64,000 nt of DNA from Syntrophales bacterium. GTDB lineage: Bacteria; Desulfobacterota; Syntrophia; Syntrophales; UBA2210. Shown here in pieces: positions 9,693-33,251 of this stretch. The stretch covers positions 416,001 to 480,000 of the forward strand of contig CAXXNF010000002.1 of NCBI GenBank assembly GCA_963666365.2, read 5' to 3'. The stretch's first letter is position 1. Each line of letters begins with the position of its first letter. The translations under genes were made by a program, and so were the position numbers. The notes under the pieces are model-generated. The model did no database searches. It was not told where the DNA came from and was given only the letters and a program-made list of their open reading frames with translations.

Positions 9693-9875
9693 CTATTCCT
9701 TACTTTCTTTTATTTTGACAATAGTAGGTTCGAATATTCGGCATACAATAAAAAGAACAACACCAATTAATAGGAGAAGAAACCCCATAACAAATCCATG
9801 TTGGCCACCAGCAAACCAAGCAATACCGATAATTGAGATAACGACAGAAAGCAATTTTAAAATTTTCCAGATCAT
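9693..9875 (-). CDS. Small two-TM membrane protein (cassette gene)
   Basis: 60 aa, two hydrophobic helices, GAGG RBS, followed by an attC. Confidence 0.65.
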   Translation of the reverse strand: MIWKILKLLSVVISIIGIAWFAGGQHGFVMGFLLLLIGVVLFIVCRIFEPTIVKIKESKE

Positions 9876-12403: not shown

Positions 12404-12440
12404 AGATGTCTCCCTTTCTATTGATCGGATCTTTTCAATA

Positions 12441-12723
12441 AAAAAGCCCTATCTCTCATTTTGAGAAACAGGGCTTGATAATCAGACCATAATCCCTCCC
12501 AGGTTATAGCTGTTCGCAATCATACACATAAATTCAAGATCATGGTATCTCAGTAACTCCGTCCTTAACGTTTTGTCAAGGGATATTGCCCTTTTAATTC
12601 ATCCGATACAATCTAACCCACTTCTATCGCGACAAAATCCCACAATGTGGGAATTTGCAATCAGCATATCAACAGATAAAACCCCTCGAAGTCCAAGATA
12701 TGAGTCAACCCCTACCCTTACCC
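12441..12723 (-). repeat. ~280-bp direct repeat, copy 1 (promoter, leader hairpin, terminator, palindrome unit)
   Basis: Aligns with 24992-25265. Minus-strand TTGACA at 12574-12579, hairpin 12483-12512, terminator-like stem with U-run at 12440-12476. Confidence 0.9.
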
Positions 12724-13005
12724 GGAAACCGGGATAAATGTCCCAGTTTATACGCTGTTACCTGAATATCGTAGGCTATGAGCCGCATAGTGCCATCGCA
12801 CTAGGCCGCGTTATCGAATCGGTACTGTATGCTCCAACAAAGCGGTAGGCTTCTGACAAATCGGCATTTTTTGCCGTTTTGTTTTGATGCCTGTGCTTCG
12901 AGGGTTTCAATCTGCTTGTAGGCGGCTTGCAAATCATCCAAAATGGATAATTTGTTTTGATACTCGTATAACTTATACAAATATATGTGTTCCCGTCCGG
13001 GACAC

Positions 13006-13230
13006 TTATCGGCCTGACTTACTCCCACCTGTGAGTAAGTTAAATTCCTTGAAGGTGGAAGATTGCTTGCGGGTTAGGCCAACGTCGGAAAGGGTTTTTT
13101 TAACCCTGTTCCCCTCGGTAACAAGGTTTGCTTGATTTTCTGATTGCCTCGCTATTTCCCCCCGTTCCTGCCCTTCACGAATGAGCTTGCCTATTTCTCG
13201 GCTTTTGCCCAGACTTCGATTGCTTTCACT
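13006..13230 (-). pseudogene. Fragment of a phage-type protein gene
   Basis: REIGKLIREGQERGEIA...KTLSDVGLTRKQSSTFK resembles the N-terminal module of phage proteins often fused to methyltransferases (recalled family resemblance). No credible start. Confidence 0.45.
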
Positions 13231-13242
13231 AATCTTGGTGGG

Positions 13243-13452
13243 GGGACAAGCGGCTCGCAAATCCGCAATTTTTACGGTTTTGTGGCGATAGGCGTCTTGC
13301 AAATCGGACAAAATGGCCGTTTTGGTGCGGTAGGCGGTTTGCAAATCCGAATTTAATTCGGTTTATATGCTGTCTGTAAATTGGGAATAATTCCCGTTTT
13401 GTCACGGTAGGCGGTTTGCAAATCCGACAGAATGGCGGTTTTGTCACGGTAA
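13243..13452 (-). repeat. Tandem array of five units, each with a different 15-nt palindrome in constant flanks
   Basis: Cores at 13263, 13305, 13347, 13382 and 13424 (spacing 42, 42, 35, 42). Flank consensus on the + strand: cggtaggcggtttgcAAAT-N15-TTTTg. Confidence 0.9.
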
Positions 13453-13501
13453 GAATAGAGCCGGGAGCTTTGTGCCAACTGGCACAGACCACATCCCGAC
13501 C

Positions 13502-14728
13502 TAGTACCATGTAACATAATATATTTCGTATTTATGGAAAATATGATATACTGGCGGCAATCCAACAAAGGAGGTTGCTATGTCGCCAAGATATCGAGTA
13601 ACCCTTACCAAAGAAGAGCGTAGAGAGCTTGAGGCAATGACACACAAAGGAAAGACCCATGCCAGAAAATTCATCCATGCTCGTGCGTTGCTGTTGTGCG
13701 ACGCCGGCGCTGACGGTTCTGCATGGAACGTTTCCGATGTCGCAGAGGCGCTTGGGGTGTCGAGCCGTTCGATTGAACATCTCAAGAAGCGGTTTGTGGA
13801 AGAAGGGCTTGAAGCCGCACTCGCACGCAGAGCACGGGAAAAACCTCCGCGCGACATCATCTTTGACGGCGCCTTTGAGGCGCGACTGGTTGCACTTGCC
13901 TGCTCGGATGCCCCGGAAGGGCGTCGGCGCTGGACGGTCAGATTGCTTGCCGACAAAGCCGTTGAGCTTGGCATTGCCGAATCCGTATCGCATATGACGG
14001 TGCAGCGGGTGTTAAAAAAAACGAATTTAAGCCTCACATCAGAAAGTACTGGAAAATCCCTCCCGAAGGGAACGCAGCCTTTGTAGCGTGCATGGAAGAT
14101 GTGCTGGAGATATATCATATGCCTTATGATCCCGCGTATCCGGTAGTATGCATGGATGAATCCTGCAAGCAGCTTGTCGGCGAAGTGCGAGAGCCCATGC
14201 CGTGCGTGCCGGGAAGACCGGCGCGCACAGATGACGAGTATGTCAGAAACGGGGTAGTGGAAATATTTATGGAAGTAGAGCCTCTCGCTGGCAGACGACA
14301 TGTGGCAATCACGGAACATCGCACCGGAAAGGATTGGGCGATGCAGATCAAGCAGATGCTCGATGAACGCTATTCCGGCGCTGTCAAGGTGCGCTTGGTC
14401 ATGGATAATCTGAATACCCATAGGATTGCCTCACTCTACGAAACATTCGAACCCGGTGAAGCCCGGCGTTTGGCGGAACGGCTAGAAATCCATTACACGC
14501 CCAAACATGGCAGTTGGCTCAATATGGCAGAGATCGAATTCAGCGCCCTGAAAGGACAATGCCTTGATCGCCGGATTCCTGATATAACAACCATGCGGGC
14601 TGAAGTAGCCGCATGGGAAAAAGACCGAAACAACAGTGCGAAGAACATTGTATGGCAATTTACTACCCCAGACGCTCGGATTAAATTGAAGCGTCTTTAT
14701 CCGAAGGTATAAAGGTTACATGGTACTA
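13502..14728 (+). mobile_element. IS630-family insertion sequence
   Basis: Inverted ends TAGTACCATGTAAC / GTTACATGGTACTA, TA duplication at a CTAG target, two-ORF transposase. Confidence 0.95.
13580..14712 (+). CDS. IS630 transposase (orfA 13580-14086 and orfB ending 14712, probably joined by a -1 frameshift)
   Basis: HTH with RWTVRLLA; DDE domain VVCMDE, LVMDNLNTH, GSWLNMAEIE; A-run slippery site near 14013-14021. Confidence 0.9.
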
Positions 14729-14994
14729 GTGCCATGTGGCACGAGGTATCGAAGCTTGTGCTTCAACGAAATTATCAAAACGGAATTAATTGCCGATTTG
14801 CAAACGGCCTACCCGCAAGTAGACACCCTCGAAGCAAAGGAAATATGGGTCTCTTTGAAGAACTATACCATTCCTCCCACCGGCATTGACAGACGGATGT
14901 CGCACTAGGCTCAAGATGTGGCGAGTGTTTACGGGAAAGACGTGGAATCACATGGCGAAATCACAGTAATACACCTACGGACGCAGATAACTTT

Positions 14995-16494
14995 TTAATA
15001 GGACTGCTGGACTCCATTAATATAGGAGCTAGTGATTGTGTAAGTATCACTTCCTACGACTTGTTTCACAGACCCAATACCCTTGTAGAACCAGTAATAT
15101 ACTGTATTCCCAGGTACAGCTTGACCCGTTTCAATCACATACTGATCATAACGGACGGAAACCTTAATGCAATCTAATAATGTTTGACTGCCTATTACAA
15201 GATCTTCTAATTCAAGAATAGTCACTGTTGAGGTGATATTAACATGGTACGCAGAACCAGAATAGATGAATGAATAAGTTGAATTAGAAACCTGGGTTGT
15301 ACCAATTTGAGTGTTGTTCGGCATTAACAACAGTGGCGTGCTAAAGTAAATATCGCCCATTAAATATGGCGATATTACATATTGTCCATAAATTTTTACA
15401 CCATTTACATCGGAGGTATAATAATCCTTTTGTCCGTCCCAATAGATCCTTTCCTTTGTAGGAACATCACCAATATATCTTGGTCCTGTTGTATAAGACC
15501 GCTGAATTAACCCTGTGGAAGAACACTTGAAATCCTGCCAGTCCCCAATATTCAGCGGAAAATAGTCAGAGGCAACAAAAGAAAGGATTTTGTTATTAAC
15601 CGTGATGGTAACCGTTTCAGAATCAAAAGCGCCTAATGAATTAGTCACTATGAAGGTAACGTCATATGTTCCAGCCTGAGAATAAGTGGGTGTCCAAGAA
15701 AAGGTTCTATTAGCGGTGTCAAAAATGGCCCCATTAGGCAGATTGAAAGCAAGGTAAGTCATGGGGGAATGATCTGCAGTAGACGCCACTAAAGTGAAAG
15801 ATAATTCTGATTTTTCATCAATTGATTTGTTCCCAATTGGATCTAACGCAGGGGAGTGGCTACGCAGACCTGATATTATTTGAAGGGCATAAATTGCTTC
15901 TACAACGTCTATCCTCCCATTTCTATTTATGTCCGATTCTTTATGGACTTCTGATTTTGGAGTAACCCCTGCATGAAGTTGAAGTGCAGCAATTCCATCT
16001 TCTATGCTAATTACGCCATCATTATCAATATCGCCGGTCAAAGAATTTCGCCCGGTATGTTGCAGATTTTTGTGAAACATGGGCCAAGAAGATTGAGCCA
16101 AGCCCAATGAACTGCCATTGATAGCATATAGCTTATCATCATATGACCCGACGTAAATAGTACCATCAGAGCTTATGGCTGGAAATGAGGATACATGACC
16201 TCCGGTCTGAAAAGCCCATTTTTGCGATCCATCTGGATTTATAGCATATAGATTATAATCGTCTGATCCCACATAGATCGTACCATCAGATCCTATTGCT
16301 GGCGAAGAAAATACATCACCTCCAGTTAGAAACGCCCATTTCAAGGCACCTTCTTCTGAAAATGATACAATTGGAAACAAAATAATTATCAGCAATAAAA
16401 GCGTCATCCAAAATAATAATTGAAATCTTGTTTTTTTCATCTTAGCACTTTTTAGGGTCAGAATCCCTTTACTTTCGATTGACCATGTTTTCAA
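14995..16494 (-). CDS. Secreted protein with PQQ-like beta-propeller repeats, dockerin-like domain and Ig (He_PIG-like) domain
   Basis: Two SSPAIGSDGTIYVGS repeats, GDIDNDGVI...SDINRNGRIDVVEAIYALQ, and LPNGAIFD...FSWTP. Starts after the R' of the 16579-16644 attC. Confidence 0.8.
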   Translation of the reverse strand: MKTWSIESKGILTLKSAKMKKTRFQLLFWMTLLLLIIILFPIVSFSEEGALKWAFLTGGDVFSSPAIGSDGTIYVGSDDYNLYAINPDGSQKWAFQTGGHVSSFPAISSDGTIYVGSYDDKLYAINGSSLGLAQSSWPMFHKNLQHTGRNSLTGDIDNDGVISIEDGIAALQLHAGVTPKSEVHKESDINRNGRIDVVEAIYALQIISGLRSHSPALDPIGNKSIDEKSELSFTLVASTADHSPMTYLAFNLPNGAIFDTANRTFSWTPTYSQAGTYDVTFIVTNSLGAFDSETVTITVNNKILSFVASDYFPLNIGDWQDFKCSSTGLIQRSYTTGPRYIGDVPTKERIYWDGQKDYYTSDVNGVKIYGQYVISPYLMGDIYFSTPLLLMPNNTQIGTTQVSNSTYSFIYSGSAYHVNITSTVTILELEDLVIGSQTLLDCIKVSVRYDQYVIETGQAVPGNTVYYWFYKGIGSVKQVVGSDTYTITSSYINGVQQSY

Positions 16495-16578
16495 AGATTT
16501 TCCTCTGGTCTTTTATCTGATTCAATCTTCAAAACCATCCCAGGATTATCGAACCTTTTCCCCTATAGCCCGCGGCTT

Positions 16579-16644
16579 CTTTAACCATGGATTAGTTCCG
16601 AACTCTCGTTCCTCGACTCGGGACTAATCCTTTATTTGTTAGGC
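16579..16644 (-). other. attC-like recombination site (66 bp)
   Basis: R'' GCCTAAC ... R' GTTAAAG; stem ggattagttccga / tcgggactaatcc; overlaps the stop of 16632-17057. Confidence 0.75.
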
Positions 16645-17057
16645 TCATTCTTTTCCTTCTTCTTTGTTTCTTTCTTTAGAAGATTCTCATAATAGATCTG
16701 CATAAGAAATCTATCTTTTGAAGAAACAGCGGACTTGCACTCGCCGGTTTCCAAGTTTAACACCTCGACATAATCATGTTGAGGCGTGCCGTCTTTGCCC
16801 TCTTCGTAGATTGTATATGAATACCTCAAAGTCTCCCCAGTTTCCTTGTTAAATCTGTAAACCGCAAATACATTAGACCACTTTTCCTTGCCAGCATAAT
16901 GAAACATGTATGGCTCAGATTTCTTATTTTCATCCAATCTGGCGCTTGCTTGATTTTTTGCCGATATATGCTCTTTGGTGAAGTAATGATGTTGAAAGAC
17001 GGCTACGTTCATAGCGATTGAAATAAGTAATACTGAGATTAAAAGGGTCGTTCTCAT
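16632..17057 (-). CDS. Hypothetical secreted or membrane-anchored protein (cassette gene)
   Basis: 141 aa, N-terminal hydrophobic helix, AGGAG RBS, ends inside the attC. Confidence 0.75.
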   Translation of the reverse strand: MRTTLLISVLLISIAMNVAVFQHHYFTKEHISAKNQASARLDENKKSEPYMFHYAGKEKWSNVFAVYRFNKETGETLRYSYTIYEEGKDGTPQHDYVEVLNLETGECKSAVSSKDRFLMQIYYENLLKKETKKKEKNEPNK

Positions 17058-17176
17058 ATCTTCTTATCTCCTTCGATCCTATCTGGATATTCCGACGCAT
17101 TCCGCCACCCAAATATGATCATTCCGCCACCCCTGAAAGGGTGCGCTCTTCGATCCACAAGATTTGACAATATCTC

Positions 17177-17214
17177 CTCGTTCCTCGACTCGGGACTAAT
17201 CCTGTATTTGTTTC
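17177..17214 (-). repeat. Half attC (copy of the R'' arm of the 16579-16644 site)
   Basis: 35 of 36 nt identical to 16605-16640; the other arm is absent. Confidence 0.8.
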
Positions 17215-18488
17215 TTTTGCTGATCGGCTTTCTTTTTAGGCATAATTTCGATATCTGCCTTAGGATAAAATTCATGTTCATAAACAGAATTTATATTGAG
17301 ATCAAATTCATATCCGTTATAAGCTGCCTTGATAATTCTAAGAACAGGCTCCTGTGCACGTAATTCACCGATTCTTTCTTTGACATGATTTAAGAGATCA
17401 ACACGCAACTGATTTGGATAACGCAAATAAAAATTCTTGCTTTTTATATCAAGGAATATTTTGTCGTCTTTAGCCAACTTATAAGATTTCTTTATATCGA
17501 ATCTTGCCTTTATTGATGTTTTTGGTGCATATTTTTTTTGAAATTCTGCGAAAAGCTTCTCTATTTTTCTTTCTTTTAAGGCTGCTTTTTTCTTCTTTTC
17601 AGCTTCTTTCACTTGTAACATTCGTTCTTTCATTTCAGCCTTAGAAATTAGCCTACAATCGATTTTGCATCCACCCTCATAAATGCTAACAATTTTGGCA
17701 TCACACCCCGGAGCATTGCGTATAGTTTTAAAAAGTTCGTCAGGGCAAACGCCGATCTTACCTTCACCAAAATCAGTCCCTTGTCTATAAATGAATATTT
17801 CCCGTGTTCCTTCTGCGACCCAAAGGTTGACATCATCACCTTCTTTGCAATTTGAAAGCTCGAATAAGTTGAGCTCGTTGACGATAAACTCTATATGATT
17901 CGGCTGATTGTCGGAAACTGAATCGCTCTGCACAATATTCATTTCTGGCTTACTATCGGGAAGAGTCAAGTCCAAATCAAGCCATACACCATAACTTCCT
18001 TCTTTAAATGCTCCCCTATCCCATACAATTTTTGCTGGACAGATTACTACTCCCGTATGTTTATCAGATATCATTTTGCTGCGCCATATCCGGGCGTTTT
18101 TCCTACTGAGATGGCCAACAAGTTTTTGTTCAATTTCAACACTAACGGCGTAGGCGTCACTAGAATTCCCATCGTCGGGAATTACGTTTGCTTGTGTAAG
18201 TAAAGCTATTCCCTCCTCTCGTCTGTTACAAAAAATCTCCTCTAATGTCTCTTGGTAAAAGGATACTCCAACAACGATAACCTCGAACTTATCATGACTA
18301 GAGGGTGTCACCTTGTCATTCTGCAATAAATTTTCATCAATTTCAAAAAGTTGTTTATATTGGGCTGTTGTGAATGGTTTGTATTCAGTTGTTAAGCGTA
18401 GAGGTTTAAAATCGGCTTGATAGTCTTTATTAGGATTACCCTTGGGTTTCTTGTCTAAAAAATTCAATATTTTTTTCAACAAAGCCAT
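17196..18488 (-). CDS. HIRAN-like domain protein (cassette gene)
   Basis: VVGVSFYQ...IPDDGNSSDAYAVSVEIEQKLVGHLSR fits the HIRAN pattern. Confidence 0.7.
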   Translation of the reverse strand: MALLKKILNFLDKKPKGNPNKDYQADFKPLRLTTEYKPFTTAQYKQLFEIDENLLQNDKVTPSSHDKFEVIVVGVSFYQETLEEIFCNRREEGIALLTQANVIPDDGNSSDAYAVSVEIEQKLVGHLSRKNARIWRSKMISDKHTGVVICPAKIVWDRGAFKEGSYGVWLDLDLTLPDSKPEMNIVQSDSVSDNQPNHIEFIVNELNLFELSNCKEGDDVNLWVAEGTREIFIYRQGTDFGEGKIGVCPDELFKTIRNAPGCDAKIVSIYEGGCKIDCRLISKAEMKERMLQVKEAEKKKKAALKERKIEKLFAEFQKKYAPKTSIKARFDIKKSYKLAKDDKIFLDIKSKNFYLRYPNQLRVDLLNHVKERIGELRAQEPVLRIIKAAYNGYEFDLNINSVYEHEFYPKADIEIMPKKKADQQKKQIQD

Positions 18489-18553
18489 CTGCCACCACTA
18501 TAAAGAATTTACATAGAATCGATTTTATGGAAAACCAAAATACTCACATCCAT

Positions 18554-18617
18554 TCCCAACGCCCGGCATTAGCGGGCGCACGCTTTTTGCGATCCGCTGA
18601 ATGCCGATTTGTTAGAG
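18554..18617 (-). other. attC-like recombination site (64 bp)
   Basis: R'' CTCTAAC ... R' GTTGGGA; cggcattagcgg pairs with ccgct(g)aatgccg, giving an extrahelical G on the bottom (+) strand. Confidence 0.85.
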
Positions 18618-19115
18618 ACATTGTTCCTATCTTGGCTTTCGCTTCTTTGCGTCTTCCTCAAGCAGTTCTTTGGTTTGGTGAAGCATATCAAGAACACCCT
18701 TAGTTGCCTCATCAAATTTATGGCCTGGACCAGTAAAGAATGGCAACAGTGGTCTCTTTTCCTGAATGGCAGCATTGACCTGGCCAACGATATTCACAAA
18801 GTAATTCTTGGCGTGAATGCGTATTTGACTTGGAGGGAACCCCCTGTTCTGGATTCCTTCTGAAATGGTTATTATGCGCAGAAGAACATTATCGCTAATC
18901 GTCTCCATCCCGGTCCATGTATTCGATGGCAATAGGTGTTGGATTGTACCATGTTTCTTTGCCTCAAGTAGAAGTTTGTATCCGTTGGACACCTCTTCTA
19001 TCAGTGCCTCGACGACAGCTACAGCGTAACCGTACGACCAACTCATCTTTCGCTTGAACGCACATTGGATTATAGCTTCCCGTCATGAACACATTTCATG
19101 ATTGGAGGATGCCCT

Positions 19116-19427
19116 ATGACACAACAAGAACGCACCGCCCACTGGTCGGCCATCGTAGAGCGGCAGATCGCAAGCGGGATGAGCGGTCTGGCCTGGTGCC
19201 AGATGCATCAGATCAATACGGCAAGTTTCTACTCCTGGCGCCGGAAACTCACTGAACCGCAAGGACAACAGGGATTTATCGAACTTGCATCCTCGACGGC
19301 CGACTATGCCGGCATTCGCATTTGCATGGGGCCGCTTCTTTCCATCGAAGTGGAACGCGGCTTCGATCCCGTTACCCTGCGCACCGTTATTGAAACGCTT
19401 CATAATGGTTCCCCATGTTCGGCCTGA
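19116..19427 (+). CDS. tnpA: IS66 accessory protein TnpA
   Basis: SGMSGLAWCQMHQINTASFYSWRRKL HTH; first gene of the IS66. Confidence 0.85.
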   Translation: MTQQERTAHWSAIVERQIASGMSGLAWCQMHQINTASFYSWRRKLTEPQGQQGFIELASSTADYAGIRICMGPLLSIEVERGFDPVTLRTVIETLHNGSPCSA

Positions 19428-19756
19428 CAGCATCGGCACGCATCTATCTTTATCGCAGCCCCTGCGACATGCGCAAGTCCTTCGACGGCCTGTGCGGCAT
19501 TGTCCGCGCCGAACTTAGCGCCGATCCCCTTTCGGGATCACTCTTCGTCTTCGTCAACCGGCGGCGGAACATGGTGAAGCTCCTGTACTGGGACAGCGAC
19601 GGCATGGCCATCTGGCTGAAACGTCTGGAGCAGGGGTCCTTCGTGCTGCCTTCCCGGCAGTCCCGCGACGGTCATATCGAGCGCCGGGATCTGGCCATGC
19701 TCCTTGAGGGAATCGTGCCGAAAAAAGTGGGAAAACGGTACAAAATATGTGCATAA
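19415..19756 (+). CDS. tnpB: IS66 accessory protein TnpB
   Basis: DMRKSFDGL, LFVFVNRRR and KRLEQGSF motifs. Confidence 0.95.
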   Translation: MFGLTASARIYLYRSPCDMRKSFDGLCGIVRAELSADPLSGSLFVFVNRRRNMVKLLYWDSDGMAIWLKRLEQGSFVLPSRQSRDGHIERRDLAMLLEGIVPKKVGKRYKICA

Positions 19757-19808
19757 AAAATAATATAAACACTTGACATTATTATAGTTATGTGCTATAC
19801 GCCCGCTC

Positions 19809-21419
19809 ATGATATTGACGGAAGCACAAGAGATTATCGACCGAAAAGATGCTGCCTGGATTCTGGAATTTGCCGCCCAAAAGGATGCCCAGATCGAAGC
19901 GCTTACCCAGAAGCTCGAATCCGCCCAGCGCCAGTTGACCACCCTGCAGCATCAGATGGAACAGCTGCTGAAACGGCTCTACGGCCGCAAGTCCGAAAAG
20001 ATCAACCCCGGTCAGCTGATGTTCGACGACATGGTGCTTCAATCATTAGAGCAGAATGCGGCGGTGAAAGCACAGTTCGAAGACGCTTCTGCCACAGAGA
20101 CTGTCAAGAAGCCCCGCAAGGCCTCCCGGCATCACGGCCGGGTTCCCATTCCGGAGCATCTCGAACGGGTGGAGATTCTGCTGGACGTGCCCGAGGATGA
20201 AAAGATCGATGCGGACACGGGCGCACCCCTGAAGGTCATTTCCGTGGAAGTCTCGGAGAAGCTGGAATACCGGCCGGGGAGACTGATCGTCAACGTCTAC
20301 AAGCGGCCCCAGTATGCGCTGCCGGAGGCATCGGAATCTACCGCCGGCGTCATCGCCGCCTCGCTGCCCGATCACCCCATCGCCAAGTGCAAAGCCGACG
20401 TGGGGCTGCTTTCTCATCTGATCGTCAGCAAGTACGCCGATCATCTGCCTCTCTACCGACAGAACAGCATTCTGGAGCGGGAAGGAGTGGACATTCCCCG
20501 GGCCACCCAAACCAGCTGGCTCATGCAGGTCTATGAGAGCATTCGTCCCTTGGAAACAGTGCTTCAAAAGGCCGTCCTTGAGAGGGACGTGCTCTTTACC
20601 GACGATACGCCCGTTCCTCTGCAGGTCAAGGGAAACGGCAAGGTAAAGAAGGCCCGTCTCTGGGTCTATCTGCGGGGCGGTCCGGGACCGCCGCTGACGG
20701 CCTATGACTTCTCCATTGATCGGAGCAAGACGCGCCCACTGGAGTATCTCAATGATTACCAGGGGTACGTCCATGCCGACGCCTACGGCGGCTACGACGA
20801 ACTTTTCAAAAAAGAAGAGATTATCGAAGTGGGTTGCTGGGCCCATACCAGACGGAAGTTCGACGAGGCGGTTTCATCGCGTCCTCAAGAGGCCACGGAC
20901 ATCCTTGCCCGCATCGCCCGGCTCTATCACGAGGTGGAGACCCCCTGTGCCGAGATGACGCCCGAGGAGCGGCGCCGTTTCCGGCAGGCGCATGCAACGC
21001 CGCTGCTTGAGGGAATCTTTGCAAAGATTGAGGAACTGAGGCCCCGGACGACGCCCTCGGAGCCGTTGCGGACGGCCATCAACTACGCCCTGAATCAGCG
21101 GGAGGCGCTCTGCCGCTATCTGAAAGACGGACGGTTAAGACCCGACAACAACCTGGCGGAAAACGCCATTCGGCCCATAGCGGTAGGTCGAAAAAACTGG
21201 CTCTTCGTGGGCAGCGAACGGGGCGGCCGGGCGGCGGCCCTTTATATGGGTCTCGTTCAATCTTGCAAAAACTGCGACGTCAACCCCTGGGAGTACTTTG
21301 ACGACATGCTTCGGCGGATCATGAGCCATCCCGTAAACCGCCTGCGGGAACTGCTTCCCGATCAGTGGAAGCCTGTGCCCAGGGATGAACGGGGCCTGAT
21401 CATCCAGGGAAAACAATAA
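19809..21419 (+). CDS. tnpC: IS66 DDE transposase TnpC
   Basis: KYADHLPLYRQ, CWAHTRRKF and DNNLAENAIRPIAVGRKNWLF motifs. Confidence 0.97.
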   Translation: MILTEAQEIIDRKDAAWILEFAAQKDAQIEALTQKLESAQRQLTTLQHQMEQLLKRLYGRKSEKINPGQLMFDDMVLQSLEQNAAVKAQFEDASATETVKKPRKASRHHGRVPIPEHLERVEILLDVPEDEKIDADTGAPLKVISVEVSEKLEYRPGRLIVNVYKRPQYALPEASESTAGVIAASLPDHPIAKCKADVGLLSHLIVSKYADHLPLYRQNSILEREGVDIPRATQTSWLMQVYESIRPLETVLQKAVLERDVLFTDDTPVPLQVKGNGKVKKARLWVYLRGGPGPPLTAYDFSIDRSKTRPLEYLNDYQGYVHADAYGGYDELFKKEEIIEVGCWAHTRRKFDEAVSSRPQEATDILARIARLYHEVETPCAEMTPEERRRFRQAHATPLLEGIFAKIEELRPRTTPSEPLRTAINYALNQREALCRYLKDGRLRPDNNLAENAIRPIAVGRKNWLFVGSERGGRAAALYMGLVQSCKNCDVNPWEYFDDMLRRIMSHPVNRLRELLPDQWKPVPRDERGLIIQGKQ

Positions 21420-21726
21420 TCAGTGCACCGTATTCCGGCGGTTGAATCCCGTAATCATATTATCAAAGAGCACCGGCTGTACCGGTTTTAGGTACAGCGT
21501 ACTTCATGTAAAATTCTTTTGCTATATGAGTTGGTCGTACGCTTACGCTACAGCAAGTTTTGAATCTTTCCGCTTCGTTCGATTGTCGTTTCTTAGCTCT
21601 TTCCATTGTGATAACAGAAATCCAACTGCCACGCCTGCTAGAGGTGCAAATACCTTGGAATTCACAATGTCCAGTGACCACTGGAGGATGATCTTCAACA
21701 ATTCCATTTTCTCCCGGTCCTTATGT

Positions 21727-21801
21727 CGCTAACGACGCGGTTAAGTGGGCGGCAAAGGAGCGAAGCGGATTTGCTGATCCATCTTCAACCGCTTGTTCGG
21801 A
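21727..21801 (-). other. attC-like recombination site (75 bp)
   Basis: R'' TCCGAAC lies 1 nt after the stop codon; R' GTTAGCG; gcggttaagtgggcggcaaa pairs with tttgctg(a)tcca(t)ctt(c)aaccgc. Confidence 0.9.
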
Positions 21802-21802
21802 A

Positions 21803-22243
21803 TTACTTAGCTTCCATTTCAGCAATTGCCTTCTTGTAAGCTTCCACCATTAATGTTTGAAGATGTGGCATGGCATCTGCCATGTATTGTCCGAATTTGG
21901 TCATGGCTGATTTACCTATGGAGGAACCATAGAAATTAGCCAGCGCATTCAGCTCGGCAGCGGTAAAATGCCTGACCAAAACATCCTTAATTATATCGGT
22001 GAGTTTCTCCAAATCGAGGTGTTTCGTCATCAAGCGTATGAATGGTCTTCGTTGTTCTTCGGGAAGCCGCACAGACATTCTTGTTACCATATCAGTGATC
22101 ATGTCCTTTGGCGGCATTACGGTTAGATAACGGTCGGCCTCCGATAGTCTGTTCTGTAAAGTGTCTTCGATTGCCTTGGTTTGAGCAAAGGCAATAGAGG
22201 ACAGGACTATCACGGCTATAATAGAAAAAACGAGTTTTCTCAT
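21803..22243 (-). CDS. DUF2059-like exported protein (cassette gene)
   Basis: Signal peptide and HFTAAELNALANFYGSSIGK motif. The cassette starts GTTCGGA, the exact complement of its own R''. Confidence 0.85.
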   Translation of the reverse strand: MRKLVFSIIAVIVLSSIAFAQTKAIEDTLQNRLSEADRYLTVMPPKDMITDMVTRMSVRLPEEQRRPFIRLMTKHLDLEKLTDIIKDVLVRHFTAAELNALANFYGSSIGKSAMTKFGQYMADAMPHLQTLMVEAYKKAIAEMEAK

Positions 22244-22261
22244 GACTTCCCTTTCCATTTT

Positions 22262-22321
22262 TCCGAACATTTAAGGTTGTATGCGGAGTTAGCCATAATT
22301 CCGCATACAATCCTGTTGGAC
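22262..22321 (-). other. attC-like hairpin site closing the recombinase-IS91 unit (60 bp)
   Basis: R'' GTCCAAC ... R' GTTCGGA; stem aggttgtatgcggagtta / taattccgcatacaa(t)cct. Confidence 0.7.
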
Positions 22322-22585
22322 TAAGCCGCAACTCGGTGTTTCCCTATGGGGATTCAATAACGCGGCTTCGTCCTATTTTTCCATTAAAATATCGATATGG
22401 TCATTGATTGAATAGCGTTTTTACGAAAAAGCCCGGCAAAAAATGCTCCTTTGTTGCTGTGAGCGCTGTTGATGCTGCCTTCGGTGGCGTGGATGTTGAG
22501 ACATATCTCCGAAAAGGGCGCACAGATCCGACGCAATCTTTTGGTGTTCCGATATTCGACTGCAATCATTGATCAACATCCCTTT

Positions 22586-23770
22586 CTATGGAGGCCACCT
22601 ACCGGTTTGTGACAGAAGAACCTCCTTCCGCACCATGATTCCCTTGCCGCAATGGGGGCATATCCGAAGATCAACGCCGGTCACCCGGAGGAATGTCTCT
22701 TCCCAGGGTTCTTTGGGGGAATCATTTTTCTCTGCCTGTTCCGGTATGCCGAGGAGCTTTTTGCACTGAGCAAGCTTTCTCTTTCGGTTCCGGTTGCTCA
22801 GCAGTCCGTAATAGCGGATCTTCATGAACTGATCGGGGAGAATGTGCAGGAGAAAGCGGCGGATGAACTCGAAGGCGTCGAGGGTCATGAGCTTGGTCTT
22901 GCCTTCCTTTGACGGATCGCGCACTCGGAAGGTAACATCGCGGGGGCCTATCCTAACAATTCTGTCGTTCGAGATGGCCACACGGTGGGTGTAGCGACCG
23001 AGATACTCGATGACATGTTTTGCGCTTCTGAAGGGTTCCTTGCAGTAGACAACCCACTCTTTGCGATAAAGATCGGCAACGAACTGTCGAAAGGTCGCCC
23101 GTTCCTTTAGGGCCTCGATCTTGCCGGGGAATCTCAGATCGGCTGCTTCGTAGGCTTTTTTGAGATAGTGAAGAAACTTACCCCGAAAGAGCCGGGAAAG
23201 AACCTTGACCGGCAGGAAGTAGTCCTCCTTCGCCGGAATCCATCGCTCCCCGTCAAGGGAAAGTCCGCCGCCTGTCACGATGCAGTGAACATGGGGATGA
23301 TCGATCAGGCTCTGCGACCAGGTGTGCAGGATGGCAATGCAGCCGATCTCAGCACCCAGATGACGATGATCGCGGGAAAGATCCATGATGGTCTCGGAGG
23401 CGGCCTTGAAAAGTATGTGGTAGAGGGTCTTCTGGTTCCGCAGGGCCAGCGGTCGAAGTTCCTGGGGAATCGTGAAAACGATATGCACGTAGGAAATGGG
23501 CAGCAAGTCCTTTTTTCTTGCCTCCAGCCACAGCTCTCGCTTCAGTCCCTGGCATTTGGGGCAGTGGCGATTCCGGCAGGAGTTGTAGGAGATCCGAACG
23601 GCACCGCAATGGTCGCATTCATCCACATGTCCGCCAAGCGCGGCGGTCCGGCATAGTTCAATGGCTCGCATCGCCCGGTGGTGTCGTCCGGCCATTCTGC
23701 CGCCATGGATATCTCGATAGGCCTCCCCAAATTCACGGAAGACCTGGGCCACTTCCGTGGTTCCACGCAT
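22586..23770 (-). CDS. IS91-family rolling-circle (HUH/Y2) transposase
   Basis: Zn-binding CRNRHCPKC, HUH motif HPHVHC, YLGRY and EFIRRFLLHILP. Confidence 0.95.
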   Translation of the reverse strand: MRGTTEVAQVFREFGEAYRDIHGGRMAGRHHRAMRAIELCRTAALGGHVDECDHCGAVRISYNSCRNRHCPKCQGLKRELWLEARKKDLLPISYVHIVFTIPQELRPLALRNQKTLYHILFKAASETIMDLSRDHRHLGAEIGCIAILHTWSQSLIDHPHVHCIVTGGGLSLDGERWIPAKEDYFLPVKVLSRLFRGKFLHYLKKAYEAADLRFPGKIEALKERATFRQFVADLYRKEWVVYCKEPFRSAKHVIEYLGRYTHRVAISNDRIVRIGPRDVTFRVRDPSKEGKTKLMTLDAFEFIRRFLLHILPDQFMKIRYYGLLSNRNRKRKLAQCKKLLGIPEQAEKNDSPKEPWEETFLRVTGVDLRICPHCGKGIMVRKEVLLSQTGRWPP

Positions 23771-23784
23771 GAAACGGCGACCCG

Positions 23785-24639
23785 CTAAAGAACGCTGTCC
23801 CGCGAGGCGGCGATCACGTCGAGGGGATTGGCGATCCGTTCAAAGTCCTTTCGAGAGAGGTGGAGGTAAACGGCCGTAGTCTTGGGGCTGGCGTGCCCCA
23901 GAAGCCGCTGTATGTGGTACAGGTCCGCCCCGTTCTCCAAGAGATGGGTGGCAAAGCTGTGGCGCAGGGTATGGACGCTCCCCGCTTTCCTAACGCCCGC
24001 TCTGAGCAGCGCATCTTTAAAGGCTTTCTGGACGCTTGACACTGAAAGAGGCGACCACTTGTCTTTGCCGAAGAAGAGCCAGTTCACGGGATGGCACTGC
24101 GACCAGTAAAACCGCAGTTCTTCCAGGGTCCGTTTGGCCAGCAGGGTGTAGCGGTCTTTGTTTCCCTTCCCCTGGCGTATGCGAATCACCATGCGTTCGC
24201 TGTCGATGTCGGACACTCTCAGATGCACGGCTTCATTGAGCCGCAATCCTCCCGAGTAGATCGTCATGAGAATGGCCCGATGCTTCAGATTGCCGACGAC
24301 CGAAAGAACGGCCCGCACCTCCTCCGGCGAAAAAACCGCAGGTAGGCTCTTTTGTTTCTTCGCACGAGGTATCCGGTAGGAGATCCAGTCGCGCTTCAAT
24401 GTCGTCTCATAGAAAAACTTCAGGGCGCTGTAAGTCTGACTCACCGTTGACTGAGAAGCCTTCTTCTCTTCGATGAGATAGTGAAGATAGGTCTTGATCT
24501 CTTCTTCTCCCAACGTCTCCGGCGACGCCCCAAAGTGACGCACAAATCTGCGCATGTGCTCCAGATAGCATTCCCGCGTCCTCCGGCTGAGGTGGCGCAG
24601 CTCCATATCGCGTTTCATCTGATCGCGCAGTCTTCCCAT
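23785..24639 (-). CDS. Tyrosine recombinase with N-terminal SAM-like domain (IS91-associated; not IntI)
   Basis: GLRLNE, QGKGNKDR, HTLRHSFATHLLE and LGH..PKTTAVY; lacks the IntI-specific insertion before box II; AGGAG RBS. Confidence 0.92.
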   Translation of the reverse strand: MGRLRDQMKRDMELRHLSRRTRECYLEHMRRFVRHFGASPETLGEEEIKTYLHYLIEEKKASQSTVSQTYSALKFFYETTLKRDWISYRIPRAKKQKSLPAVFSPEEVRAVLSVVGNLKHRAILMTIYSGGLRLNEAVHLRVSDIDSERMVIRIRQGKGNKDRYTLLAKRTLEELRFYWSQCHPVNWLFFGKDKWSPLSVSSVQKAFKDALLRAGVRKAGSVHTLRHSFATHLLENGADLYHIQRLLGHASPKTTAVYLHLSRKDFERIANPLDVIAASRDSVL

Positions 24640-24773
24640 ATCTTTTCTCCTTTCTTGCATGAATGATGAATCATCCTTACAAAAAGAAGAACGATCAGGA
24701 CAGCAACAATGTACGCTATTCAATTGTCAAAGAACGACCATTTTTACTTAAAATACCGCCGCGTAGCGGCTTA

Positions 24774-24937
24774 GTTCAACTATTGTTTATACAGTTTCTG
24801 TGTAAATCCTTTACATAGCTGATTCAGCTATGTAATACATATTTTAATTGCGTTAAAAATCTTTATAAGTTGCTGCAATAAATAGGATATTGTGAAATTC
24901 GTCATTTATTTGAGTGTTTTATACAGAAACTGCGTAA
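24774..24937 (-). other. attI-like site heading the cassette array
   Basis: Minus strand ctgtataaacaata-GTTGAAC; 17/20 inverted repeat (24787-24806 / 24918-24937); perfect palindrome with 12-bp arms at 24811-24835. Confidence 0.5.
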
Positions 24938-24991
24938 TACACCTTTCCGGTATGACTATCGCAATATTGATCTGAGCTGACCACCAAAAAC

Positions 24992-25265
24992 AAAAGCCCT
25001 CTCTCATTTTGAGAAACACGGCTTCGATGATCAGACCATAATCCCCCCTTGGGTTATAGCTGTTTCAATTCAAGATCGGCAAGGTATGTTAATCAGTAAC
25101 TCTGTTAATGACGTTTTGTCAAGGGATATTGCCCTTTTAATTCATCCGATACAATCTAACCCACTTCTATCGCGACACAATCCCACAATGTGGGAATTTG
25201 CAATCAGCATGTCAACAGATAGAACCCCTCGAAGCCCAAGATATGAGTCAACCCCTACCTTACCC
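24992..25265 (-). repeat. ~280-bp direct repeat, copy 2
   Basis: Aligns with 12441-12723; minus-strand TTGACA at 25117-25122 faces the array. Confidence 0.9.
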
Positions 25266-25344
25266 CTCAGAGTTTGGTTTCTTTCCTGGCACCCCCCTAA
25301 AACACCCACGCCAGAGCAAAGGAAAGGGTATATGAGATATGGCG

Positions 25345-25551
25345 CTACGGTTTGCGGTAGGGCATGTGAAGATAAAGGGGGCAGTCCGGTATGTCGCAAT
25401 CAACACGCCCGTCGATATAGTAGCCCGAGCACTCGCAGCATTTTGCAAGGATCGCCTGTTTAAAACTGAGTCGCTGTCCCGCGTGATGCTTCAAAAGCTC
25501 GCGTTTTCCCTTAGCTCTGGGCGCTTTTTCAACGTTTTCGATGTGCTTCAT
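25345..25551 (-). CDS. Small Cys-rich (putative Zn-binding) phage-type protein
   Basis: AILAKCCECSG...DCDIPDCPLY; overlaps the stop of the upstream gene. Confidence 0.7.
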   Translation of the reverse strand: MKHIENVEKAPRAKGKRELLKHHAGQRLSFKQAILAKCCECSGYYIDGRVDCDIPDCPLYLHMPYRKP

Positions 25552-25814
25552 TTCGCCCCACCTTCAGCAAGTTTGCGAAGGAGCTCTTTTTGATTTCGAT
25601 AATCGGCCGAGAGAATTTCAAGAGTTATGTCATCGTGCCGCCACTTTCGCCCGTCTTTTCTGGGGAAGCGTTCGTCGAAATCCTCGCACAGGATATCGTA
25701 TAGCTCGGCGTCCGACATCTGTTCCACCGGATTTGCCCCTGGAGGCTTTAGCTTCTCTTCGAGTTTCGCGAGTCTGTTTTTATTGTCTTTCATTCTCCCT
25801 CGCCTCTCTTTCAT
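25548..25814 (-). CDS. Hypothetical protein of the satellite-like element
   Basis: Tightly coupled operon layout; start uncertain. Confidence 0.6.
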   Translation of the reverse strand: MKERRGRMKDNKNRLAKLEEKLKPPGANPVEQMSDAELYDILCEDFDERFPRKDGRKWRHDDITLEILSADYRNQKELLRKLAEGGAK

Positions 25815-26004
25815 TCAGCCGTTTTTCAAGTGTGGTTATTCTGTCCTCTATTTCCGAATCTGCGAGGATTTTATGAAGTATTGACACGAGATAGCCGAGT
25901 TTACCGGCTGTCGCAGCATCCACTTCGCCACTGTCTAGCCGGTTAACCAGCCCCGAAAGATATCGCCGCACATCGTTCAGATTGTTTAATCGCTTCATTG
26001 TCAC
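25780..26004 (-). CDS. Small helical hypothetical protein of the satellite-like element
   Basis: 74 aa ending in a coiled coil (EIEDRITTLEKRL); start uncertain. Confidence 0.7.
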   Translation of the reverse strand: MTMKRLNNLNDVRRYLSGLVNRLDSGEVDAATAGKLGYLVSILHKILADSEIEDRITTLEKRLNEREARENERQ

Positions 26005-26125
26005 CGCCTTTTTACTCTTTTTTGTATGCTAAAGTGACTCTAAGGCCATGTTTTTGTTGTAAAAGGTGAGCTGTACCCCCTCTCTCTTTTACGCGAATGC
26101 TTCCACAACTTCAGGTCAAGCAAGC

Positions 26126-26917
26126 TCATAACACCGCCCGGATGCTCGAATATCGTTTTGGAAATTCAGTAATCGTTTCGCGCTCCGAAAAAACCCACTC
26201 AATTACTTCCGGATCTACCCCTAACGCTGCAACATCCATTGCAAACTTCATGGGGTTCGCGTCATATATCTTGAATAACTTACCCCAACCCAGGCAAAAG
26301 CGATTGAACTCATCAAATTTAGGAAGATCGGCCTTGATTTCGTTTAGCGCCCGCCCAAGATTGCGTTCCGCACGTATCAATTTTATCGCCGCCTCATTTT
26401 GCAGTTCTTTTAGGCGATCAACGATTTGCTTGACAATTCTGATTTGCTCATCTCTGGGAAGGGTATCATCTAGGTCATCTAGCTCTTTCCTCAGCGCCTC
26501 AATCTCTGACCGCACATCATCATAATGCGCCGATTTTTCACCCTCATCGTGGCTAAGTAGCTTATAGGCGCTTGTCAAATCGGAAACTGTTTCCGTTTTC
26601 AGCCTGTCACGCTCTCGATAAAGCCGCATATAACTACGCGCCGTCCGTGGCGTAAAAGGCAAATTGCCTTCAATCCACTTTTCAAATTCTCCGTGCTGAA
26701 GTTCAGACTTTGCAGACAGAAGCAGCTCTCCGATCCTGATTGCATCGGCAAGGGCATTTTTCATATATCCGCCGACTTGTTCATGAAGATGAATAATGGC
26801 GGCAACTCTTTCTTTCTGGCTCAGCTCACTGTCAAGGTTCGCCGCCTGCATAGCTTCTTTCGTGCCGCCTCTGTCATACACTTCCTGAATCTTGTTTGCT
26901 CTGCTCTGCTCATCCAT
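26126..26917 (-). CDS. DUF3102-like HTH protein carrying an internal DNA palindrome
   Basis: AIRIGELLLSAKSELQHGEFEKWIEGNLPFTPRTARSYMRLY. KTETVSDL is encoded across the palindrome cggaaac-a-gtttccg (26581-26595). Confidence 0.8.
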   Translation of the reverse strand: MDEQSRANKIQEVYDRGGTKEAMQAANLDSELSQKERVAAIIHLHEQVGGYMKNALADAIRIGELLLSAKSELQHGEFEKWIEGNLPFTPRTARSYMRLYRERDRLKTETVSDLTSAYKLLSHDEGEKSAHYDDVRSEIEALRKELDDLDDTLPRDEQIRIVKQIVDRLKELQNEAAIKLIRAERNLGRALNEIKADLPKFDEFNRFCLGWGKLFKIYDANPMKFAMDVAALGVDPEVIEWVFSERETITEFPKRYSSIRAVL

Positions 26918-27107
26918 TGTTCTGCTCTCCTTTGGGTCTGCTCTGGTGTCCTAGCTTTAGGGTTTTGGATAGGAAAGAAAGTCTATAATGAGACTTTCTT
27001 CCTATTCCCCAAAAACCCCCTATGCGGTTTAGGACATAGGCCGAATAGGACAGAAATTTCCGTCTATGGGAACCAGTCCCCGATCGGCCGCATTTCGGCG
27101 CCTCCAA
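26910..27107 (-). CDS. Possible small hypothetical protein
   Basis: Fills the gap between the primase and the DUF3102-like gene; weak evidence. Confidence 0.25.
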   Translation of the reverse strand: MEAPKCGRSGTGSHRRKFLSYSAYVLNRIGGFWGIGRKSHYRLSFLSKTLKLGHQSRPKGEQNNG

Positions 27108-28671: not shown

Positions 28672-28916
28672 ATTGCACCACCTTTTCGCAACTCGGATCG
28701 TAGCACTTTCTCTACCTTCTCGGGCGTTTCGGAATCGTTGCAGCATCGCTGGCATAGGCAGTAGCGAATTAGTCGCGTTTTATCCTCAACCCCGCCGTAC
28801 GCTGCGGGTTCGTCAGGCAGAAAGACGCCGATCACCGCCGCGGCACCGCCGCAAATGAGACATGAATCGCCATCCCGCGGGTGCTTCATCAGTTCGAGGG
28901 CCTCATTCGTCGTCAT
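28668..28916 (-). CDS. Zn-finger-like hypothetical protein
   Basis: CLIC...CLCQRCC; ATGA overlap with the primase. Confidence 0.7.
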   Translation of the reverse strand: MTTNEALELMKHPRDGDSCLICGGAAAVIGVFLPDEPAAYGGVEDKTRLIRYCLCQRCCNDSETPEKVEKVLRSELRKGGAI

Positions 28917-29055
28917 GATCTTCCGCGTCTCCTTTGCTAAAGGCTGTGAACATTCGGTCGCTTATCGCTTGCAGGCGAGCAGCCTCGACGTCGCTCGCCG
29001 CTTCTATATAAATCTGTTCGGGCGTCATCTGCTCGTCGAAACTGAATAATATCAT
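28903..29055 (-). CDS. Small hypothetical protein (50 aa, below the ORF-track cutoff)
   Basis: MILFSFDEQMTPEQIYIEAAS...; fills the operon gap and follows a GGAG RBS. Confidence 0.5.
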   Translation of the reverse strand: MILFSFDEQMTPEQIYIEAASDVEAARLQAISDRMFTAFSKGDAEDHDDE

Positions 29056-29059
29056 ACGT

Positions 29060-29257
29060 TTATCCATTGTTTTCGCCCTCCAAGATTTTCTTGATGTCGG
29101 CGAGCGGCCAGAGCAGCCGGCGGTTTGGTAATTTCACGGGTTTAATTTTTAAATAATGTCCATTGATGCAGAGTCCCCTCCGCATGGTTTCATCTTCGAC
29201 GCCCAGCATCGGCGCAGCTTCCCTTGTCGTAATGTGTGTTATCCGATTTCGTTCCAT
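29060..29257 (-). CDS. AlpA/excisionase-like DNA-binding protein
   Basis: ITTREAAPMLGVEDETMR...PVKLPNRRLLWPLADI. Confidence 0.8.
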   Translation of the reverse strand: MERNRITHITTREAAPMLGVEDETMRRGLCINGHYLKIKPVKLPNRRLLWPLADIKKILEGENNG

Positions 29258-29420
29258 CCCAGCACCCCCTTTTTCAGTTGATTTGACAACTATGTCTGAA
29301 TTTGGACGGAAGAAATCTTCCGTGCGACGGAAGAAACGGGGAAGAAGTTAATTAAATCGGGATGTTAAAAAAAATAAAGCCGATGAAAAAAAAGTCCACC
29401 GGCTTCAAAGAAAGGAAAAA

Positions 29421-30611: not shown

Positions 30612-30614
30612 TGC

Positions 30615-30699
30615 GTATCCCCCCGCAATTATCCCAGGTTGTGAAGGGGCAGCCGGTGGGATATGTCCGGTCTTCGGGTAGCTTGCCCTATCCCCTTCA
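30615..30699 (-). ncRNA. Candidate structured cis-regulatory RNA
   Basis: Closing stem tgaagggg/ccccttca with two internal hairpins; the loop auauccca is complementary to downstream ugggaua and to the RBS region ggggaua. Confidence 0.45.
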
Positions 30700-30717
30700 G
30701 TCTTATTGTTTTGACTG

Positions 30718-31266: not shown

Positions 31267-31275
31267 TCCTCCTTT

Positions 31276-32610: not shown

Positions 32611-32659
32611 CTCCTAAAGTTTGGCTGCGTGGTATAACGATTGCCCCTTGGCTTTGTCA

Positions 32660-32844: not shown

Positions 32845-32849
32845 AAATC

Positions 32850-33202: not shown

Positions 33203-33251
33203 ATATATACCCGGGTTTTATCGACGAGGCAACCGGCGCCGCCGGCAGGGA

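Follow-up and report, generated by a model that had tools for sequence, protein, structure and literature searches.

In bacteriophage λ, the initiator gene O contains four 18-bp iterons that follow the part coding for the DNA-binding domain of O, and lambdoid phages differ in their matched O and iteron specificities. Arrays of initiator sites outside an origin occur in iteron control loci (P1 incA and those of iteron plasmids), which act in trans on replication. Also comparable are KorB with its OB operators, and parS, which lies inside spo0J, the gene of its own binding protein (our literature search for parS within spo0J returned nothing usable). Ori-λ is placed within gene O, and inhibition of rep-λ phages by plasmid-borne iterons is described, for which titration and handcuffing are discussed (PMC3349717). 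In the F plasmid, sopC comprises 12 units of 43 bp, each with a 16-bp inverted repeat; the repeats are bound by a helix-turn-helix (HTH) dimer, and the array lies downstream of the partition genes (PMC3177203). Here we analyze a 64,000-nt stretch (the window) of contig C2 of a Syntrophales bacterium, whose 4.0-Mb genome was also scanned. It contains a gene of the DUF3102 family with a palindromic site, and gene-detached copies of this site (orphan units), five of them in a tandem block with five different cores. As in λ O, the site lies inside its own gene, after the HTH-coding part (the site-encoded residues 107–114 follow helix 90–101), and the gene belongs to a replication module.

The original prediction described a library of variable 15-nt palindromes in constant flanks, linked to a DNA-binding gene family. 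All eleven of its units were verified, at the places and with the cores given, by reading and by a genome scan (starts and strands: 12634+, 12857−, 12930−, 13258−, 13300−, 13342−, 13377−, 13419−, 14777+, 25177+, and 26576−). One of the eleven (26576–26599, minus strand, 24 nt, AAAA-CGGAAACAGTTTCCG-ATTTG) lies within the DUF3102-family gene (26126–26917, minus strand, 263 aa), where it encodes KTETVSDL just behind the HTH. The other ten are non-genic, which bears out the claim that they stand outside credible genes, yet they derive from a coding segment of about 30 aa of a DUF3102 subfamily. The tandem block (13258–13442, minus strand) holds the units starting at 13258, 13300, 13342, 13377, and 13419; as had been reported, its frame is broken by a 35-nt unit (spacing 42, 42, 35, and 42) and by a stop codon, an in-frame TAA in unit 13342–13365. 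Two further orphans (12857–12880 and 12930–12953, together 12857–12953, minus strand) lie to its left, the second of which runs on into a QIETLEAQ-coding extension. An inverted orphan (14777–14800, plus strand) stands on the far side of an IS630 copy, and 14 of its 15 core positions are identical to a unit in a foreign array described below (L183). The perfect palindrome TCCCACAATGTGGGA forms the core of an orphan within copy 2 of a repeat, D1 (12634–12657, plus strand), and the same unit recurs where a further D1 copy marks the integrase-distal end of the intact element (25177–25200, plus strand). Units 12634, 12930, 14777, and 25177 share the ccctcgaag extension, again as predicted.

The dyad is kept in the orphan units while their sequence changes. 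A genome scan with the 35-nt frame AAAA-N15-ATTTG-N6-GCNTA, allowing at most 2 substitutions, gave 125 matches, 12 of which are true units; the twelfth lies 2053 bp to the left of the window start, and all 12 are confined to 29 kb (C2:413947–442599). With core positions numbered c1–c15 across the palindrome, the 12 units have 5–7 of 7 mirror pairs complementary, versus 0–5 (mostly 0–3) for the remaining 113 matches; the loose 24-nt frame by itself barely exceeds chance (44 matches versus 32.9 ± 5.5). In the 9 distinct non-genic cores, 50 of 63 mirror pairs are complementary. Resampling of synonymous codons gave 34.3 ± 2.4 and column shuffling gave 32.7 ± 3.4, and 50 was never reached in 5000 trials, so palindromy exceeds that of codon-shuffled controls. 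When ten units from the window were combined with four from other contigs, 87.9% of cells were paired (70.0 ± 3.0 in shuffles, and at most 51% in slid controls) and 30 cells were compensatory (14.1 ± 2.5 in shuffles); none of 500 shuffles reached either value. The pairs c2/c14, c3/c13, and c5/c11 are complementary in 9/9 distinct orphans, with 2–3 pair types each. Units 13300 and 13419 (cores 13305 and 13424) encode the same peptide, KTAILSDL, and are separated by a compensatory c2/c14 swap, in agreement with the earlier observation of a compensatory pair; units 13342 and 14777, which are otherwise similar, are also separated by a c2/c14 swap. The contrast between constant flanks and a variable core is one of degree, since the flanks of the tandem units also differ by ~17–33%.

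Judged from its pattern of substitutions, the palindrome inside the gene is a DNA-level element under nucleotide constraint. The site-bearing segment of the family genes is KTxxxSDL, just behind the HTH, and ..KTETVSDL..AY.. is found in 71 of 85 protein homologues of the window gene. We took the DNA of relatives from metagenome and viral contigs (the metagenome set comprises 80 of the 163 relatives found), and measured constraint in 43 homologues less than 95% identical over 120 nt. Within the site, third-codon information amounts to 2.00 bits for the K, T, E, V, S, and D codons and to 1.57 bits for L; it drops to 0.16–0.54 bits for R, T, and A residues that are invariant but lie a few codons outside the site, and to 0.14 bits for the centre codon. 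Because third positions are fixed within the site and free at neighbouring invariant residues, the constraint points to DNA rather than protein. The constrained element measures 24–25 nt and consists of two 10–11-nt arms around a free 3-nt centre; the same wobble bases face each other across the dyad in 50 of 52 distinct instances. Its position behind the recognition helix is alike in about 70 homologues, and an IMG/VR gene found by DNA pattern (L001) carries the site with a perfect palindrome. The protein sequence yields to the DNA site: in nine rows of the alignment, T>S on the left or D>V on the right removes the single A-A mismatch to give 11/11 pairs. Compensated alleles are clade-specific (CGGAAA/TTTCCG, CGGCAA/TTGCCG, CGGACA/TGTCCG, and CCGACA/TGTCGG). 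The number and spacing of sites vary in the family, as one locus (L166/L197, about 2618–2740) has two in-frame tandem sites in an intact DUF3102 gene (KNDTVSLL..KTDTVSDL) and in another (L154, about 2618–2720) 6-bp arms enclose a 5-nt centre to make a 17-nt core.

The site co-varies with the recognition helix of the protein that contains it. Among 70 genes with a clear palindrome, R at helix position 4 accompanies G/C at c2/c14 in 64 and Q accompanies C/G in 6, with no exceptions; at helix position 5, N, S, or H accompanies A at c5 in 64 and R accompanies C in 5, with one exception. A blind, DNA-only scan of IMG/VR for the Q-type site returned four loci with two distinct sequences, and each of the two belongs to a DUF3102-like gene whose helix has Q, the site following the HTH. 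These associations suggest that specificity is set at least partly by two residues of the recognition helix (positions 4 and 5 of RTA[R/Q]xYM). The arm bases are fixed in the genes even though compensated alternatives are possible, and this, together with the helix co-variation, argues that duplex DNA would be read by a protein dimer, and not that a bare hairpin is the selected form. The predicted link between the units and a DNA-binding gene family is strongly supported by the synonymous-site constraint and the co-variation.

The resident gene, which is of R/S type, was the sole DUF3102 gene found in a search of the genome (Pfam PF11300, E 2e-11, 44.7 bits versus a cut-off of 24.4, residues 52–109), and all 63 aligned homologues match PF11300. 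In an AlphaFold2 (AF2) model, the HTH helices are residues 78–85 and 90–101, the predicted recognition helix (90–101) is PRTARSYMRLYR, and the site-encoded residues fall in a low-confidence linker. Homodimer prediction gave a score of 0.65 (best of three controls, 0.18), a mark that is reached by 20 of 30 proteins solved as same-chain pairs and by 1 of the 23 whose solved structure is a single chain. At least 48% of contacts agree between runs, the partner has a predicted local confidence (pLDDT) of at least 65, and the interface lies on helices 32–72 beside the HTH. The model supports pairing of the DUF3102 protein. Whole-model fold searches returned generic helical matches only. The N-terminal domain (model pLDDT 86.6) gave matches at noise level, namely StbA at E 3.8 in Foldseek, and the SopB–DNA complex in VIA-align at Z 4.5 and 4.3 against a list top of Z 5.1 (SopB root-mean-square deviation 3.1, 62 residues aligned). 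A family-profile search of the sequences of solved structures found no matches at E up to 1, and the four PHROGs families matched are all of unknown function. No Pfam family besides DUF3102 recurs in the 63 members, among which neither Phage_rep_O nor any other initiator family was found; one of the 63 has a ParB_N domain. The literature searched contained no functional work on DUF3102, and a search for an intragenic operator of this kind produced nothing usable.

We next consider what the orphan units derive from. Their frame reads YR.KT...SDLQ.AY.QIETLE, which is the stretch directly behind the HTH of DUF3102-family proteins. Searches of all six frames of 12400–15000 (tblastn and profile) recovered six fragments that match only a ~35-residue segment (profile positions ~68–104), and the same searches detected neither HTH nor C-terminal DUF3102 remnants beside any of them. 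The units could instead have been the remains of a gene for a 14-aa KTAILSDLQTAYRD repeat protein. We compared the open reading frame (ORF) at 13006–13344, which spans two units, with 1.84 billion representatives in an exhaustive HMMER search, and none of the 53 proteins matched at E up to 1e-3 carries this repeat. Most of the matches represent a different phage HTH module, a fragment of which sits between the units; the matches that reach into the repeat part are noise or represent an unrelated protein whose repeats have a ~67-aa period. We therefore reject a decayed 14-aa repeat gene, since no homologue carries the repeat, as well as remnants of whole genes, since the six-frame searches recover only the ~35-aa module. 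The restriction of the six fragments to this segment and the lack of any repeat protein indicate that the site-bearing module alone was multiplied.

Mixed arrays recur in other elements. A DNA scan of IMG/VR identified two, so that arrays of the kind sought do exist elsewhere. In the first (L183/L200), four units, each with a core of its own, follow one another at a 34-nt period; they occupy the integrase-distal extremity of a 6.5-kb satellite-like element, which is bounded by two tRNA-Met genes (3137–3209 and 9731–9807) and has an integrase and a capsid gene; the array follows a weak Terminase_4-like (small-terminase) gene (E 6.6e-4). The second (L186/L201) combines three different cores in its four units (spacing 70, 42, and 42) and is found immediately downstream of parA, orf110, and an HTH_23 gene, beside a resolvase; the ParA matches AAA_31 at E 2e-52, and the contig also encodes a DnaB-type helicase. 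The core CCGACAAATTGKCGG, which is identical to the site in the L001 gene, is present in both foreign arrays, as is GTMAMTCTAATTTAC; CGGAATTAATTKCCG is found in L183 and at 14777 in the window. No further IMG/VR records matched a pattern of two adjacent units. When 301 genomes of the order were scanned with a strict unit pattern, true-looking units appeared in this genome (G000), in G019 and G036, and perhaps in G157; outside this genome, these are single or double orphans only, in 2 (possibly 3) of 300. The G036 units (L010) lie near a capsid gene and the G019 unit (L024) lies just upstream of an HNH gene and the large terminase gene. A DNA search for homologous arrays in 61 genomes found for the most part the dispersed repeat with which D1 begins, and units accounted for two short matches only.

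The orphan cores can also be compared with the sites in genes, as the original prediction had proposed: for 7 of the 9, there is an intragenic site that agrees with the core at no fewer than 10 of the 12 arm positions. They fall into at least five classes, with outer triplets of both R type and Q type. Because there are several half-site classes and a single DUF3102 gene, most orphans, if they are read at all, would need proteins supplied in trans, from other elements such as helper or rival phages.

DUF3102 genes belong to replication modules and often have primase-helicase genes as neighbours. In a Pfam set of 82 of 166 listed ORFs from 30 DUF3102 loci (duplicate loci and distant ORFs were dropped), primase, helicase, or loader genes adjoin the DUF3102 gene in 8 of 30 loci, and they do so in the window, where a Prim-Pol/PriCT/DnaB-like primase-helicase gene (Pfam; 27064–28755, minus strand) lies directly upstream of it. 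A KilAC antirepressor gene lies upstream in two other loci, one of which (L001) also has a YqaJ exonuclease gene downstream. This setting suggests that the site is most likely a control point of origin, iteron, or operator type, or one that is centromere-like.

These observations lead to a reading in which we place middling confidence: the palindrome would be the cognate site of a DUF3102-type HTH dimer, and the orphans would be copies of the site module detached from the gene. Each unit would be a docking site of ~25 bp, with an arm C-AAA-W-CSG-NNN, a free 3-nt centre, and a mirror arm. Helix position 4 would read base pair 2/14, and position 5 (N/S or R) would read base pair 5/11. Since the site occupies the linker codons that follow the HTH, it would be inherited together with the DNA-binding domain as one module, as in λ O and its origin. 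The nine orphan units would be copies of this 40–90-nt site module alone, amplified in tandem at intervals of 42 nt, or four helical turns, within what is left of a sister element, and each of three element copies has one orphan at its integrase-distal end.

Several points weigh against this reading. In the orphans, c4/c12 and c7/c9 are often unpaired, and two cores (TCCCAC.. and TATCCA..) resemble no sampled gene site. Neither foreign-array record contains a DUF3102 gene, both being fragments estimated at 10–17% complete. The HTH was not assigned to any known DNA-binding family by fold or sequence searches. The motif was part of the peptide pattern through which most loci had been collected, and this biases the residues and not the synonymous bases; members retrieved via another pattern behave alike. 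The genes usually have one site each, with extra nearby sites (≤2 mismatches) in 12 of 68 loci versus a rough expectation of ~14, and in this they are unlike a classical iteron origin. Autoregulation through second sites at a promoter was rejected, as nearby sites occur only at chance level. The phylogenetic argument is also limited. On a quick-mode tree of ~55 columns, from which the trait columns had been removed, each trait changes 5 times; 5 pairs can be counted over all branches, the 3 independent ones on supported branches all agree, and a phylogenetically conservative sign test on 3 pairs gives p 0.25, with significance out of reach. With only three independent pairs, the co-variation of helix and site offers strong circumstantial evidence for recognition and not statistical proof. 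Finally, the orphan region is rich in insertion sequence (IS) elements of the IS630, IS66, and IS91 types, and its frames are broken.

This last point keeps alive an explanation by neutral debris, in which a 42-nt segment of one or more decayed DUF3102-like genes was duplicated by slippage and the palindromes persist through youth or template-switch correction, with no function. Every unit derives from coding sequence, and the region is made up of three D1 remnants, the IS elements, broken frames, and an in-frame stop. The scarcity of comparable loci is as debris would have it, the strict patterns having yielded the few single or double orphans and the two tandem IMG/VR arrays described above. 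Pure debris is nevertheless made less likely by the pairs complementary in all nine distinct orphans with 2–3 pair types and two independent c2/c14 swaps, by the same core types in mixed arrays of unrelated contigs at defined positions (an element end, and downstream of parA), and by the missing HTH and C-terminal remnants beside the six fragments. We consider this explanation unlikely.

Another possibility is that the arrays serve proteins other than DUF3102, as the centromere of a ParA operon (L201) or as a cos/pac-type signal for a small terminase, and that their likeness to DUF3102 genes reflects DNA ancestry. The L201 order parA-orf110-HTH_23-array, with a resolvase beside it, matches the layout of sopA-sopB-sopC, and a 42-nt period with one inverted repeat per unit resembles sopC (PMC3177203). 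A packaging signal would suit the L200 array behind its Terminase_4-like gene, the L024 unit upstream of HNH and large terminase genes, and the L010 units near a capsid gene. No parA, parB, or terminase gene was found near the window units among the annotated window genes, however, and the cores differ within an array, whereas centromere repeats for one protein are near-identical. The intragenic sites, moreover, co-vary with the DUF3102 helix, and one of the array cores has exactly the sequence of a site in a DUF3102 gene. These points leave the idea with a low probability, below that of debris.

Selection on a nucleic-acid hairpin, as a small intrinsic terminator or attenuator (antisense hairpin plus TTTT) or as a structured RNA or single-stranded DNA signal, would explain why pairing persists in the orphans while the sequence changes. 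In a loose scan, four window units are terminator-like in the antisense direction, and A-tract, hairpin, and T-tract together have the shape of a bidirectional terminator. A hairpin should tolerate compensated changes in the genes, but the arm bases there are fixed (c2/c14 is G/C in 64 of 64 R-type genes), and such base changes as occur follow the recognition-helix residue. The stems are only 5–6 bp, with 4 T, and orientation to the upstream operon is inconsistent: L200 and D1 have the terminator sense, and L201 and all of the genes the opposite one. A covariance search against Rfam 15 matched no family, with two sub-threshold chance rows in 11000–28000, neither on a unit. We regard a hairpin function as improbable, and it fits worst together with the suggestion that the orphans are silent donor cassettes for gene conversion of the resident gene's site and specificity. 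That suggestion is very improbable: the orphans could supply alternative cores, set in similar frames on either strand and within 14 kb of the gene, but their flanks are of the DLQ.AYQQIE subfamily and the resident gene is of the DLTSAYKLL type, the gene site is conserved across homologues, a site change without a helix change would break the match seen in 70/70 genes, and the single contig that covers the array (one run, the probable source sample) shows 0 differences, contigs being unable to show rare variants.

If the palindrome is a DUF3102 site, the mixed arrays may have a function of their own. They could be landing pads of multiple specificity on which a satellite, plasmid, or chromosome region collects the cognate sites of DUF3102-type replication-module proteins from several phages, either to capture these proteins, on arrival of any one of several helpers, for its own replication, segregation, or induction or to titrate or handcuff them as an anti-phage decoy. 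We put this forward tentatively and think it unlikely as it stands. The palindrome core would then be an address label and the sites embedded in genes the address book. Three functions had been suggested for the units at the outset. A multi-specific docking or parS-like array fits best, given the parA operon immediately upstream of one foreign array; the decoy is retained; and silent donation found no support. An iteron- or centromere-like pad, the capture of helper proteins, and a decoy would all be compatible with a mixed array.

The orphan units are embedded in repeated and mobile DNA. Three D1 copies of ~280 nt lie within 29 kb, with one unit in each, the leftmost extending from C2:413743 onward. 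Copy 2 (12440–12723, plus strand) consists of a dispersed repeat over its first 76–150 nt, followed by the DUF3102-like fragment RYNLTHFYRDKIPQCGNLQSAYQQIKPLEVQD, and copy 3 (24992–25266, plus strand) is 85% identical to it over 282 nt and 93% over a 174-nt core. The D1 start (12440–12590, 24992–25140, and C2:413743 onward) forms a long-loop hairpin with a T-run on the minus strand, followed by GATAATCAGACCATAATCCC. This repeat has DNA matches in 30 of 61 related genomes, including 27 of 36 of the same family, with up to 7–8 listed matches per genome, and it also occurs in contigs from sequencing runs of other organisms; it could be a family-wide intergenic repeat or the sequence into which these elements integrate. 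The element's integrase-distal end occurs three times in 29 kb (12440–12740, 24992–25450, and L178 11740–12230), suggesting that related elements either inserted repeatedly at one locus or left tandem remnants there. The leftmost and rightmost ends share a small zinc-finger-like ORF region (25345–25551).

The IS630-family insertion (13501–14729, plus strand; HTH and DDE_3 ORFs by Pfam) splits the minus-strand block from the plus-strand unit. Contigs from other organisms' runs span exactly 13501–14729, and with only 2 differences between this copy and contigs of another organism's run and of a marine-sediment metagenome, the element is recently mobile across hosts. The IS630 copy and the dispersed repeat were all that contigs from other sequencing runs contained. 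Two 14-bp palindromes, GTGCCAACTGGCAC (13472–13485) and GTGCCATGTGGCAC (14729–14742), flank the insertion point and so fall between the minus-strand block and the inverted unit.

Between the units lies the fragment of an unrelated phage HTH module mentioned above (LIREGQERGEIA...KTLSDVGLTRKQSS; 13006–13230, minus strand). Its module (..ERGEIA..KTLSDIGITRKESS..) is found at the N-terminus of methylase-like proteins, and the DNA of the fragment contains an AGGGTT..AACCCT palindrome. Three predicted public proteins (P0087, P0093, and P0116) consist of three tandem copies of the ERGEIA-type HTH module, so tandem amplification of the HTH-adjacent module of a gene may be a wider phenomenon.

At the other end of the integrated element are an HTH_3 repressor-like gene (30718–31266) and a tyrosine integrase gene (31276–32610; together 30718–32610, minus strand). 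The 146-nt gap between the primase-helicase and DUF3102 genes contains an 18-bp inverted repeat (GGATAGGAAAGAAAGTCT .. AGACTTTCTTCCTATTCC at 26967–27008) and a 16-bp near-palindrome with the half-site ACGGAAA at ~27040–27057. We rejected an att-site interpretation, as no direct repeat joins both ends of the element (24500–34000) and there is no tRNA gene in the window.

DUF3102 is a large family of phages, satellites, and plasmids, and our data give it a testable job, namely what would be sequence-specific binding to a site in its own gene. The associations of helix R/Q with base pair 2/14 and of N,S/R with base pair 5/11 would constitute a first recognition code for the family. The gene site is a clean example of dual coding, in which amino acids change to give a perfect dyad. 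Should the mixed arrays of the three unrelated elements prove functional, they would represent a novel type of cis-acting panel; they bear on the ways in which satellites and plasmids recognize, exploit, or block several phages, and they could be used to predict which elements interact.

Beyond the shared position of the site within the gene, the comparison with λ O brings out three differences: DUF3102 genes usually have one site (two in L166/L197) instead of four, the family members have no match to an initiator family (Pfam, and PDB sequences at E up to 1), and the orphan arrays mix site types, which ori-λ does not. P1 incA and the iterons of plasmids resemble the orphan units in being site arrays outside an origin, but they consist of one site type for their own initiator, whereas the sites described here are mixed and mostly lack a resident cognate protein. 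Compared with SopB and sopC, the window units have no adjacent parA or parB, parA being present only at L201, and whereas sopC repeats are near-identical, the five cores of the window block and 3–4 cores in each foreign array differ. The likeness to sopC lies in the tandem units of ~40 bp with an inverted repeat (spacing 42, 42, 35, and 42 in the window, 70, 42, and 42 in L186, and 34 in L183) and in the L201 array, which occupies the position of sopC after parA.

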